The notes: a model not told the origin generated them from the sequence alone. A stretch of 32,000 nt of DNA from Candidatus Harpocratesius repetitus (GCA_021498095.1 JAIZWK010000001.1:3210001-3242000), one strand, 5' to 3'; positions 20,683 through 24,313 are shown, numbered from the stretch's first letter. Made by a program: numbers and translations.

Positions 20683-21561
20683 CTATTTGCTAGAGAATTG
20701 AATCCGCTTCTCTAAATCACGAAAAATTCCTAGAACCTCTTTATCTGAAAAATTTGGTGCTAAACGATGAAATTTCAGATAATATTCATAAGCTCTTGCA
20801 TATTTCTCCATATTATAAAGAATTAGAATAATATTCTTTAAAGCGGTGATATTTTCTTCATCTAAAGCAAGCACTTTCTCAGCAAATTGCTTGGCTTCTT
20901 CAAAATTTCCAGTTCCAAATTCTAAAGCTGCAATTCTATTTAATATTAATTTGTTGTTTGGTTTTTCCTTCAAAGCTTTACGAAGATGGTATAATGCTTT
21001 TCGATATTGTGCGGAAAATTCATATGCTAACGAAATAGAATAATGTGCTTCAGAATATTCCGAATCCAATTTAAGAGCTTCTTCAAAACTCTTTATTGCT
21101 TCAGAATTAGCATCAATCTCAATATATGCATTCCCCAAGTTATTCCAAACTCGTGGATCACTCTTATTAATTTGTAATGCTAACTTATAACATTCAATAG
21201 CCTCACGATAAAGCGATTTTCCTTTCTTTTTTGCTAAAATCTGCATGGTTGAACCCATATTTAGATATAATCCATACATTATTCTATCATATTCGATCCC
21301 TTGTACATCAGAAGGAATTTCTCGTATTTTTTTATAGAAACTTAATCCTTTATTTAATTCTCCTAATTGTACATAAGTCAAACCTAAATGATAATACTTT
21401 AAAACTTCAAAATTCGGAGAATTTAGATGATGAAAAAAGGGTAATGACTCACGATACTTCCCTTTACTATATAATGAGAGCCCTCGTTCGAATATCACTT
21501 TATCATCTTTTCCCTTGTATTCAAGAGGGAGTTCTTCTATTTCGTATTTATGCATTAACAA
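20683..21561 (-). CDS. Tetratricopeptide-repeat protein
   Basis: Repeated TPR patterns (VWNNLGNAY...EAIKSFEEALKLDSEYSEAHYSI). Confidence 0.9.
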   Translation of the reverse strand: MLMHKYEIEELPLEYKGKDDKVIFERGLSLYSKGKYRESLPFFHHLNSPNFEVLKYYHLGLTYVQLGELNKGLSFYKKIREIPSDVQGIEYDRIMYGLYLNMGSTMQILAKKKGKSLYREAIECYKLALQINKSDPRVWNNLGNAYIEIDANSEAIKSFEEALKLDSEYSEAHYSISLAYEFSAQYRKALYHLRKALKEKPNNKLILNRIAALEFGTGNFEEAKQFAEKVLALDEENITALKNIILILYNMEKYARAYEYYLKFHRLAPNFSDKEVLGIFRDLEKRIQFSSK

Positions 21562-21655
21562 TCAAAATAGGTAAAGGAAAAAAAAAGATAAATTTATCCT
21601 CTTTTTATTAGAACTCTACTTGTTAGTAAAAAAAAGTTGAAAATGTTGAAGCATT

Positions 21656-21742
21656 AAATTCCCAGACAATCGGCTTTGTGTAAATATATTCTCCTTTTGT
21701 GATGTAAAGTTTTGGAATATATTTCATCCATAAAGGGAATTT
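21656..21742 (-). promoter_or_regulatory. Candidate SECIS element in the 3' UTR (eukaryote/Loki-like, variant core)
   Basis: Minus-strand RNA: helix I CUUUAUG/CACAAAG, then G-AUGA, helix II AAAUAUAUUC/GAAUAUAUUU, unpaired AAAA, mini-stem CUUU/AAAG. Starts within 15 nt of the stop of a UGA-containing ORF. Confidence 0.6.
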
Positions 21743-21747
21743 TTGAA

Positions 21748-22095
21748 TCATATATCTGATGCGCTGGTTCTCTTCCTTTGATTTTTTGGCGGAATTAAAA
21801 AAAGATTTCGATAAACAGCCCAACCACTTAATACAATTTGAGCATCATTCCACCAGGATATTAGTGAATTTTGAATTAAAATAGGAACTGGACATTTTTC
21901 ATGGAATTTTTCGGTGAATTTTCTTTTAAAATCATCATCTTTTTTGATACTATCTCGTGAAATAATGCTTGTTAGTGCCACTCTCGATTCCCCGCATCAA
22001 CCTCTATAAATTTTTTCTGTAATTAGTATAATCGGAAAAGAAATTCCTTCCATTTTTTCTTTAATAAATTGTATTGCTTCTTCAGAGAACTTCAT
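21748..22095 (-). CDS. Putative selenoprotein, HesB-like/CC-Se motif family (in-frame UGA at 21997-21999, codon 33)
   Basis: MKFSEEAIQFIKEKMEGISFPIILITEKIYRG-U-CGESRVALT...VPILIQNSLISWWNDAQIVLSGWAVYRNLFL; 115 aa if UGA is read as Sec. The track reports only the part after the UGA (21748..21981). Confidence 0.75.
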
Positions 22096-22340: not shown

Positions 22341-22766
22341 ATGGCAGATGATATGGAATTAGAACTTATCAGAAGAAAAAAAATGGAAAAAATGATGAAA
22401 ATGAATCAAACTACTATTCCAAATGAAGTGATCGACATCACATCCGTTGATCATTTTAATAAAATTGTTAATGATTATAAAGATAATCTCATAATCGTAG
22501 ATAATTGGGCAGAATGGTGCAGACCTTGTTTAGCTTTTGCTCCAACTTACCATGATCTTCAAAAAGAATATCATTCAAAGGGAGTGATTTTTGCAAAACT
22601 AAATGTTGATCACCACCAAGATATTGCAGCACAATTTCAGGTAACTGGAATTCCTACAACATTATTTATTCATAATAAGAAATTAGTGCATAGACAAGTT
22701 GGGATGGCACCAAAACCTCAATTTGCTCAAGTTATTGATGCAGTATTAAAAAAAGTTCAAAACTAA
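22341..22766 (+). CDS. trxA: Thioredoxin (archaeal type with charged N-terminal extension)
   Basis: WAEWCRPC active site, FAKLNVD, VTGIPT. ATG 22341 is preferred over GTG 22332. Confidence 0.95.
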   Translation: MADDMELELIRRKKMEKMMKMNQTTIPNEVIDITSVDHFNKIVNDYKDNLIIVDNWAEWCRPCLAFAPTYHDLQKEYHSKGVIFAKLNVDHHQDIAAQFQVTGIPTTLFIHNKKLVHRQVGMAPKPQFAQVIDAVLKKVQN

Positions 22767-22949: not shown

Positions 22950-23378
22950 ATGGATACCATAGGGGTATCAATGGTTAATCAAGCACAATTGGATGAATTT
23001 GTTCAAATTGTTAGATCCGTTTTTAGGCTAACCAAGAAAGAAGCAGAGTGTTTCTTAAAATTGAGGCGATACGGCCCAGAAGGAACTTGTGTTCAGAATC
23101 TTGTAATTCAAACAGAATCTGAAAGAAGCGTGGAGCAAAAAAAGTTAAAAAAACTGCTCCGTTTACAATTAGTTACTCGAGAAGCATTATCTTTAAAAGA
23201 TTTTCAAAATCGATGCTCAGAAAATAATAGAGATGATTTAATTCCTAGTACTAAAAAGGGATATCTCTATATCTACAGAGTTATTCCAGATTCAGAGTTA
23301 ATTGCAAAAATTAAAGAGATAACTGATCAGTGGTTAAAAAATGTTAATAGCTTCCTTTTGCCCTTAACAGAAAATTAA
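22950..23378 (+). CDS. TrmB-like/COG3355-like HTH transcriptional regulator
   Basis: VFRLTKKEAECFLKL...ERSVEQKKLKKL...KKGYLYIYR. Confidence 0.7.
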   Translation: MDTIGVSMVNQAQLDEFVQIVRSVFRLTKKEAECFLKLRRYGPEGTCVQNLVIQTESERSVEQKKLKKLLRLQLVTREALSLKDFQNRCSENNRDDLIPSTKKGYLYIYRVIPDSELIAKIKEITDQWLKNVNSFLLPLTEN

Positions 23379-23392
23379 AAATTAGAAAAATT

Positions 23393-24313
23393 TTAAAAGA
23401 ACATTAGTATTTTTTCGATATGATCAAGTAAAGATTTTACACTATCCTTCAAAGCCAAAACATTATAGACTTTTTCAGGTTTATAACCAACAAGAAGGTA
23501 AAAATTTTGATCTTCTTCTCCAACAATACGGTGAGCTAATAATTCAACACCTTCTGATTCGATGGTGAATTCTCCTGCATACAATTTCAATTTTTTTGGT
23601 TCAAAAGCTGCAAAAATTTCTTTGGCAGCTAATTTAAGAGCAGTTTGATCAACATTTTCAGGAAAATAACTTCCCAATTCAACCAGATCTTCAGAATAAA
23701 GTAAAATAAACTCGATTTGATCTTCAAAATTGTTATTTTTAACAAATTCGCTTAAAATGACTTCTGTATTGTTTGTTAAGATATTATTTCCTAAAACTGC
23801 ATTTGACATTGCGTGAATAACAGAAATAGGATTAAATATAGAAGTTTTAATTACTTCTGTTTTTAGTGGATGCGCCATTGTTTTAAGTTTTTCTCCAAGA
23901 GTCTTTACATATTCTACAGTTTCAGTCTCTTTCTCTAAACCAGGATCAAATTTATGAAGTAGGATAAAAAGAATAATATTTGGAGAGTATTCTAACAGAG
24001 CAGTTCGAACCATTTGAAAATAATTTAACGTATCAGAAATTGAGTTTTGATCTTGAATATCCACAACAAAATAAACCTGTTCTAAATCAGAAAAATAAAC
24101 ATCTGCACGATTCATATATTTTTTTCGAAATCGATCTTGACCTCCAAAATCCCATACGATCAAGTCTTTTCCAAAAAAGGTCATTTTACTCCTTTCAATA
24201 CCTTTAGTGGGTTTAAGTTTTGCGAGAGATTTAAATTCTCGTTGAAATGTACGAATAATACTTGTTTTACCTGAATTTTGGATTCCTAAAATGGGTATTT
24301 TTTCTTCTGACAT
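23393..24313 (-). CDS. Rag/Gtr-like small GTPase with a C-terminal roadblock-like domain
   Basis: G1 GIQNSGKTS, PTKG, WDFGGQ, HKFD, TSIF; C-terminal alpha/beta domain of about 120 aa. Confidence 0.85.
   Translation of the reverse strand: MSEEKIPILGIQNSGKTSIIRTFQREFKSLAKLKPTKGIERSKMTFFGKDLIVWDFGGQDRFRKKYMNRADVYFSDLEQVYFVVDIQDQNSISDTLNYFQMVRTALLEYSPNIILFILLHKFDPGLEKETETVEYVKTLGEKLKTMAHPLKTEVIKTSIFNPISVIHAMSNAVLGNNILTNNTEVILSEFVKNNNFEDQIEFILLYSEDLVELGSYFPENVDQTALKLAAKEIFAAFEPKKLKLYAGEFTIESEGVELLAHRIVGEEDQNFYLLVGYKPEKVYNVLALKDSVKSLLDHIEKILMFF

Follow-up and report, generated by a model that had tools for sequence, protein, structure and literature searches.

Asgard archaea serve as the reference for the origin of the eukaryotic selenocysteine (Sec) system, and their selenoproteome has been used to date the transition. 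The recoding of UGA in these organisms by way of an "eSECIS-like" element is already known, its layout having been given by Mariotti 2016 and Huang 2024 (PMC4989117, PMC11227280), and the same is true of the CC/Se motif (seleno)protein superfamily. The proteins that carry the residue have likewise been catalogued: Mariotti 2016 lists five selenoprotein families in Lokiarchaeota (PMC4989117), Huang 2024 lists seven in Asgard archaea, found by homology to known selenoproteins across more than 400 genomes (PMC11227280), and a 2026 review arrives at eleven archaeal families in total and does not mark the CC/Se family as archaeal (PMC13188914). None of the three lists the family considered here for archaea, and full-text searches (Asgard with selenoprotein and IscA; NF041239) returned nothing further on it. 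What is new, then, is an unreported Asgard branch. The described proteins with which it can be compared are the CC/Se motif proteins (NF041239/PF28096), the IscA/SufA/HesB carriers (PF01521), the HesB-like selenoproteins of methanococci and bacteria (TIGR01911) and, by analogy only, animal thioredoxin reductase.

The locus lies in a stretch of 32,000 nucleotides (hereafter the window) from Candidatus Harpocratesius repetitus (GCA_021498095.1 JAIZWK010000001.1:3210001-3242000). Read on the minus strand, the gene opens with an ATG (22095-22093) and 32 sense codons, continues in the same frame through a TGA (21999-21997), a TGC (21996-21994) and 81 more sense codons, and closes with a stop; this is the layout that a first-pass annotation of the window had proposed, and its coordinates and codon counts are reproduced exactly. 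The features of the gene and its immediate surroundings are as follows.

21748..22095, minus strand: predicted selenoprotein CDS, complete; 115 residues plus a TGA stop (21750-21748), start ATG 22095
21997..21999, minus strand: in-frame TGA, predicted selenocysteine codon 33; same alignment column in more than 30 homologues, Cys in P0007/L010
21994..21996, minus strand: TGC, Cys34, the vicinal partner of Sec33; invariant in alignment A3
21628..21635, minus strand: T8 run 3' of the SECIS element, a likely archaeal oligo-T transcription stop; stretch conserved in L001
22096..22340, no strand assigned: divergent intergenic region common to the selenoprotein and thioredoxin genes; promoters presumed here, at positions that are likewise presumptive

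In the 115-residue readthrough product the motif R-G-U-C-G occupies residues 31-35, and the start at ATG 22095 fits the N-termini of homologues, which read M-x-I-T/S. An ORF list made without readthrough contains only fragments of 43 and 77 aa, and the public annotation has the 77-aa piece alone, as a hypothetical protein, which bears out the further claim that standard gene callers miss the gene. In the orthologue L001, from Candidatus Harpocratesius sp., the stop falls at the same codon, as TAA instead of TGA, and the two share, without change, a block of sequence that precedes the ATG. That 22095-21748 (minus strand) is a genuine selenocysteine-encoding gene is highly probable, and the explanation that best accounts for it, a functional selenoprotein gene cut in two by standard gene callers, is itself very likely.

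The reading of UGA as a sense codon is best judged from the homologues. In L001, whose coding sequence is 90% identical to that of the window, the ATG, the 32 codons and the TGA-TGC are all kept, and pN/pS between the two is 0.12 upstream of the UGA, a value that rests on two synonymous changes and one non-synonymous change only, and 0.37 downstream. Further afield, phmmer, run exhaustively, brought up homologues of full length that are 27-34% identical. P0005, P0006 and P0009 are predicted with Trp at the motif; given that their contigs yield those proteins only via TGA readthrough, the sole TGA in each being the codon within G/S-U-C-G, the "W" of the databases is a gene-caller artefact. The 27 proteins from a profile search are of two kinds: short contigs supply "W" readthroughs, and long Promethearchaeota contigs supply C-terminal fragments only, of 53-77 residues. 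Public collections show Trp at the Sec position in L007, L008, L009, L064 and P0005-P0025, short contigs having been called with a code in which TGA is Trp. Since the Trp readthroughs and the C-terminal fragments are both artefacts of annotation, the family has been hidden in the databases.

Searched in six frames with a profile, 400 Asgard genomes gave matches in 19; within the window's own family 12 of 13 genomes were matched, in the largest sister family none of 135. There are at most five matches per genome, four in the window's own, and nearly all have exactly one in-frame TGA. The first-pass annotation had proposed to ask whether homologues carry Cys or TGA at codon 33, and the answer is in keeping with its reading. 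All 33 copies that were re-read (among them 25 from genome loci, three from metagenome contigs, L001 and the window copy) have TGA at the same column; the homologues with TGA at the G/S-U-C-G column, conserved on both sides of it, number more than 30 and come from Asgard genomes and marine metagenomes, and a single Cys form was found, P0007/L010 (G-C-C-G), with a real Cys codon at the Sec column. Conservation in alignment A3 runs from residue 1 to about 100, with C34 and G35 as invariant columns. A single TGA at the same column, a Cys form and conservation of both flanks make up the classical Sec/Cys signature.

These results also bear on the view that there is no gene feature here at all, only a frame open by chance, an error of sequencing, or a pseudogene whose Cys codon has mutated to a stop. 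Such a view could appeal to the standard annotation, which offers only the 77-aa hypothetical protein, and to the AT-richness of the region. More than 30 independent assemblies, however, agree on the column of the TGA; the source sample, assembled independently in Logan, gives an identical sequence, and a related strain (X2) keeps the codon; a structure is confidently predicted across the UGA; and a SECIS element and the Sec machinery are both present. A 212-nt contig from a vent metagenome (X3) also spans the codon and is left out of this tally, and among the sequencing runs searched no RNA run contained the locus. With the homologue and SECIS evidence telling against it, this explanation is effectively refuted and its probability close to nil.

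Every component of the Sec machinery on which the first-pass annotation had made its reading depend is found in the genome, a single contig of 4.36 Mb. The tRNA-Sec (59.8 bits; called by ARAGORN as tRNA-SeC with anticodon tca), SepSecS (443 bits), SelB (247 bits) and SelD score above their family cut-offs, and a PSTK-like kinase gene scores below its own (94.8 bits), with only the N-terminal kinase part matched. The SelD gene (L014; C1:3802493-3803323, minus strand) is itself Sec-containing, having one in-frame TGA of its own and an eSECIS-like element. Because the 5' core of that element is ACGA and not AUGA, a rigid AUGA-based scan misses it; a genome-wide scan of this kind (ATGA with GA/AA, fixed register) passed over both the SelD element and the window copy.

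The element that would direct recoding in the window lies just past the stop, and its parts can be given as follows.

21656..21744, minus strand: predicted 3'-UTR SECIS element, Asgard/eukaryote-like; best covariance-model hit in the window, rare pattern, 93% identical to L001
21742-21735 with 21663-21656, minus strand: lower stem, 8 bp
21727-21724, minus strand: 5' core AUGA
21723-21715 with 21691-21683, minus strand: upper stem, 9 perfect bp, or 11-12 with one bulge
21714-21692, minus strand: apical loop, A-rich, begins CAAAAC
21682-21681, minus strand: 3' core UA

The first-pass annotation had noted a SECIS-like hairpin at this place, and the presence of one is upheld by a covariance model and by the rarity of the pattern; its core departs from expectation, being UA and not GA or AA. 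When a covariance model is made from other family members, with the window copy left out, its highest-scoring hit in the 32-kb window is at 21669-21739 (minus strand; 20.3 bits, rough E 0.033), a score that falls short of E 0.05 in a larger search space. A strict pattern, in which ATGA is followed by at least nine perfect pairs around an A-rich loop and by NA, was counted 27 times over 8.72 Mb, both strands included, which gives an expectation of about 3e-4 per 100 nt. The minimum-free-energy fold of the 3' UTR has a z-score of -0.34, a measure that tells nothing in sequence this AT-rich, and Rfam, which is without an archaeal or Asgard SECIS model, gave chance-level hits only on the locus. 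A second, weak covariance-model hit at 21296-21358 (minus strand; E 0.23), inside the downstream gene for a TPR-repeat protein, was judged to be due to chance.

Almost every copy of the family has an element of the same form 1-70 nt 3' of the stop, with ATGA, a stem of 8-12 bp, an AAA(C) loop, the return strand and GA. The stems differ between paralogues and the pairing is kept: in a MAFFT alignment seven of seven predicted pairs have compensatory changes, and in a model-fitted alignment of 25 copies, which leans towards structure by construction, 97.7% of cells pair versus 54% in shuffles and 28-54% with slid partners. The window element, placed in the predicted transcript at 21744-21656, is a copy of this covarying family element and deviates from it in the UA core. 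Like the published Asgard eSECIS-like elements it lies in the 3' UTR and has a 5' AUGA, a lower stem, an upper stem of 9-12 bp and a loop that opens with unpaired adenines, and a possible ministem would make it type II-like; it differs from them in its 3' core, which is UA where theirs is GA or AA. Measured against Huang 2024, the upper stem of 7-15 bp and the apical loop starting with adenines are found, but the core 5'-GA...[G/A]A-3' is not, given the 5' AUGA and the 3' UA (PMC11227280), and on account of this core the published Asgard search model would miss the window copy. Within the family only the window copy and L001 have the UA core, with GA or AA in all other copies and GA in the closest paralogue, L043 (49% protein identity); no further UA-core SECIS behind a UGA-containing ORF was found in this genome.

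It might accordingly be supposed that the window copy is a weakened or decaying Sec gene, in which a G-to-U change in the SECIS core impairs insertion, the UGA mostly terminates, and any protein made either starts internally or is made at a very low level. The position of the UA core outside the published Asgard model (PMC11227280), the low covariance-model score, and the fact that every other copy, L043 included, reads GA or AA would each fit this supposition. Yet two genomes with a 10% difference in coding sequence have kept the UA core and the whole hairpin, which at 93% identity is better conserved than the coding sequence (90%). In addition, pN/pS stays below 1 upstream and downstream of the UGA, and the frame, the start and Cys34 are intact. 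Further, the second G.A position of kink-turns tolerates A.U and A.A in ribosomal Kt-23. Decay of the window copy is thus very unlikely, and a functional selenoprotein gene is the reading retained in what follows.

The nature of the protein is approached most directly through its predicted structure. AlphaFold2, applied to the readthrough product with a 21-sequence alignment, gives a pLDDT of 86.8 and a pTM of 0.76, with pLDDT >90 over the N-terminal 32 residues, which are modelled as a helix and a strand pairing with the strand after the UGA. Since the N-terminal strand pairs with the post-UGA strand, the two "halves" make one domain, as the first-pass annotation had supposed, and the protein is predicted to be a 115-residue single domain of IscA/HesB-like fold, in which G32-U33-C34-G35 would form the turn of a beta-hairpin (21-32/35-46). 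Foldseek places IscA, SufA, HI1723, AQ_1857 and DsrR at the top of its PDB matches (E 1.5e-4 to 1e-2, TM 0.5-0.6; Foldseek probability 1.0, TM 0.5-0.6 to 1r94, 1s98, 2d2a and 1x0g), and IscA-like clusters appear in the AlphaFold DB too.

The likeness to IscA/SufA/HesB extends to an N-terminal helix followed by a beta-hairpin, with Sec33 falling on the first conserved ligand Cys, that of the G-G-C-x-G loop; hhalign against Asgard IscA proteins, at a probability of 3%, aligns Sec33 with the same Cys. In contrast, there is no significant match in sequence. Pfam gives no hit on the readthrough protein, a profile search of PDB sequences gives nothing meaningful, and P0005 reaches 14.9 bits against PF01521, for which the gathering score is 26.3. 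A vicinal U-C takes the place of the single Cys, and the C-terminal C-G-C of IscA is present in no family member, a conserved G-W pair standing there instead. No Cys other than Cys34 is invariant in alignment A3, and the three ligand Cys of PF01521 are represented at the loop position only, as Sec.

Among curated families NF041239 (CC/Se motif family (seleno)protein) alone is hit, at 19.1 bits (E 0.001) against a cut-off of 40; the match spans residues 2-98 on profile positions 4-86 of 91, and 20 of the 21 alignment members match the same profile, with a best E of 3.3e-8. In common with that family are thus homology across the whole domain, a vicinal [Sec/Cys]-Cys motif (here G-U-C-G or G-C-C-G) and a small size of about 100 residues. 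Moreover, a recorded assignment to PF28096 (Pfam CC_Se_fam) exists for P0024 and P0025, and the contig of P0025 has both G-U-C-G and an eSECIS-like element; the other members have no precomputed hit. The Asgard members differ in the low score of the window protein, bacterial members having been compared by profile alone, in their use of a eukaryote-like SECIS in the 3' UTR, and in making up a group of several paralogues, restricted to one lineage, with G-U-U-G forms among them. The HesB-like selenoproteins (TIGR01911) resemble the window protein by literature description, being small, of HesB/IscA fold and with Sec in a Gly-flanked loop; their motif, however, is U-x-G-P, that of the window U-C-G-E, and TIGR01911 matched neither the window protein, at E up to 10, nor any member of A3. 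Consequently, where the first-pass annotation had spoken of a HesB-like/CC-Se protein, the fold is supported by AlphaFold2 and Foldseek, the CC/Se assignment by NF041239 below its cut-off only, and the link to TIGR01911 falls away. Judged by sequence, the proteins are a remote relative of NF041239 and form a branch of the CC/Se motif (seleno)protein superfamily that is confined to Asgard archaea and present there in multiple copies.

Within this branch the motif and its surroundings vary. A predicted Sec-Sec subgroup has G-U-U-G from two adjacent TGAs; it is represented in the window's own genome at C1:2668775-2669080 (minus strand), where a canonical ATGA...GA SECIS follows the stop, and also in G140, G137, G138, G136, G142, G141 and G133 (L045), the motif having been read in two copies (own genome and L045), beside seven further profile hits with two TGAs. 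Two G-U-C-G paralogues also lie in the window's own genome, L024 (C1:1470514-1470807), which is convergent to a LarE-like sulfur transferase and near a ferritin, and L047 (C1:2400900-2401229), which has an insertion of about 20 residues. The Cys form, L010:117-479, is more than 90% identical to Sec forms and keeps a near-intact SECIS-like element (40.5 bits) with UUGA instead of AUGA; it looks, from its sequence, like a recent Sec-to-Cys conversion. In L026:1805-1875 (G135, same genus) the coding sequence has a C-terminal extension, the last codons of which are overlapped by the SECIS, and the stop lies inside the 3' strand of the stem. L032, L034 and L035, from other families of the class or order, show changes after the Sec (T-U-S-G, S-U-G-T and I-U-S-I), and not every member of the wider superfamily, therefore, has the vicinal Cys. 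Finally, L048 (own genome, C1:1280886-1281194) is a 115-residue ORF of IscA-like layout, with a weak PF01521 score of 18 bits and an A-I-G-G loop without Cys or Sec, and may be a redox-dead relative.

The genes around the window copy are the following.

22341..22766, plus strand: thioredoxin gene, WCRPC active site, divergent; TIGR01068 91.9 bits, just below the cut-off of 96.8; alternative GTG start 22332
20683..21561, minus strand: TPR-repeat protein gene, downstream; conserved neighbour in 9 loci
22950-23378, plus strand: 142-residue protein, no family match; syntenic with the selenoprotein-thioredoxin pair in 9 loci
23393-24313, minus strand: Arf-like small GTPase gene, adjoining the gene of the 142-residue protein; Pfam Arf, Roc and Gtr1_RagA hits on the L001 orthologue

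A divergently transcribed thioredoxin gene had been claimed from the sequence of the window, and it is there at 22341..22766 (plus strand), its L001 orthologue matching Pfam Thioredoxin; as a neighbour it is conserved across genera. In 11 loci, drawn from several genera, the selenoprotein gene is adjoined by the gene of a thioredoxin of this type, whose N-terminal extension is conserved; the thioredoxin gene is divergent and upstream in eight of them and co-directional just past the SECIS in three. The association thus survives rearrangement, which argues for a functional link. A gene for an APH/choline-kinase-like protein is also syntenic. The second paralogue group, L018-L025 (eight loci), lies about 100 nt from, and convergent with, a LarE-like ATP-dependent sulfur transferase (TIGR00268, 222.8 bits), and a ferritin is nearby in three of those loci (L022, L024 and L025).

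From known Sec biology, a course of events may be proposed in which UGA codon 33 would be read as Sec by a Sec-tRNA that the genome's SelB/EFSec delivers, with the eukaryote-like 3'-UTR SECIS, some 270 nt downstream of the UGA, as the recoding signal. The terminal UGA, 20 nt before the SECIS core, would act as a stop, as it is too close to the core for recoding; a minimum spacing between UGA and SECIS is a rule known from eukaryotic systems. Transcription would end at the T8 run, 21635-21628. In the finished protein, Sec33 would occupy the place of the first cluster-ligand Cys of the A-type carriers, whose C-terminal CGC is absent, and would cycle with Cys34 between the selenolate/thiol state and a vicinal selenenylsulfide, exchanging electrons with the thioredoxin encoded next door.

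Between the two functions that the first-pass annotation had offered, a redox protein or a metal/Fe-S carrier, gene neighbourhood and analogy lead us to favour, tentatively and at somewhat less than even chances, a thioredoxin-coupled Sec-Cys redox centre. The preference follows from the conserved thioredoxin neighbour, from the Gly-flanked U-C that mirrors the G-C-U-G of animal thioredoxin reductase, and from the general redox use of Sec. The vicinal Cys-Sec of thioredoxin reductase forms a redox-active selenenylsulfide, and in both proteins a Gly-flanked vicinal Cys/Sec pair would be able to form the eight-membered selenenylsulfide ring; both, too, would work with thioredoxin, although for the window protein this is proposed by analogy only. 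The order of the pair is nevertheless mirrored (U-C in the window, C-U in the reductase), and the reductase carries its pair on a flexible C-terminal tail, whereas that of the window protein is predicted at the tip of a hairpin in an unrelated small fold which, unlike the reductase, is without a flavin domain. The neighbourhood of the second paralogue group also speaks against a redox role, a LarE-like sulfur transferase and a ferritin pointing instead to sulfur or iron handling.

That same neighbourhood is among the grounds for a rather unlikely alternative, in which the protein would be a selenium-ligated carrier of a metal or Fe-S cluster, or a sulfur/selenium relay. Sec33 and Cys34 of two subunits would then bind a cluster, a metal or a persulfide/selenide, as in A-type carriers, and thioredoxin would only reset the ligands. 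The IscA/SufA-like fold and the alignment of U33 with the first cluster-ligand Cys are as such a carrier would have them, and this genome has no canonical PF01521 protein above the cut-off, only 3 of the 81 Asgard genomes searched having one. To these may be added the position of L018-L025 about 100 nt from the sulfur transferase, with ferritin close by in L022, L024 and L025, and the 2Fe-2S-binding CopZ-family selenoproteins, with GxUC and CU motifs, that are listed in a 2026 review (PMC13188914). Family members, however, lack the C-terminal CGC ligands of IscA and have no further invariant Cys; the window subfamily has a thioredoxin as its conserved partner and not an Fe-S assembly gene; and the LarE-like genes, being convergent with the selenoprotein genes, are not co-transcribed with them.

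The window family is abundant yet missing from the published surveys of the Asgard selenoproteome. It adds to that selenoproteome a new archaeal selenoprotein family together with a rare adjacent Sec-Sec variant, and it supplies more than 25 covarying SECIS elements, including a UA core that lies off the published model; the expansion of paralogues, the Sec-Sec forms and the UA core itself lend it added interest. Beyond these, the family offers a small and tractable protein for testing the role of a vicinal Sec-Cys pair on an IscA scaffold beside thioredoxin. A more far-reaching possibility, and one to be regarded as distinctly doubtful, is that the Harpocratesius-related family is without canonical A-type carriers, that its expanded set of IscA-fold proteins, with Sec-Cys or even Sec-Sec in the ligand loop, took over sulfur, selenium or Fe-S cluster handling, and that the UA-core SECIS is functional. 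If true, these proteins would be selenium-ligated cluster or chalcogen carriers, and the SECIS-binding machinery of Asgard archaea would tolerate a non-G.A second pair in the kink-turn.
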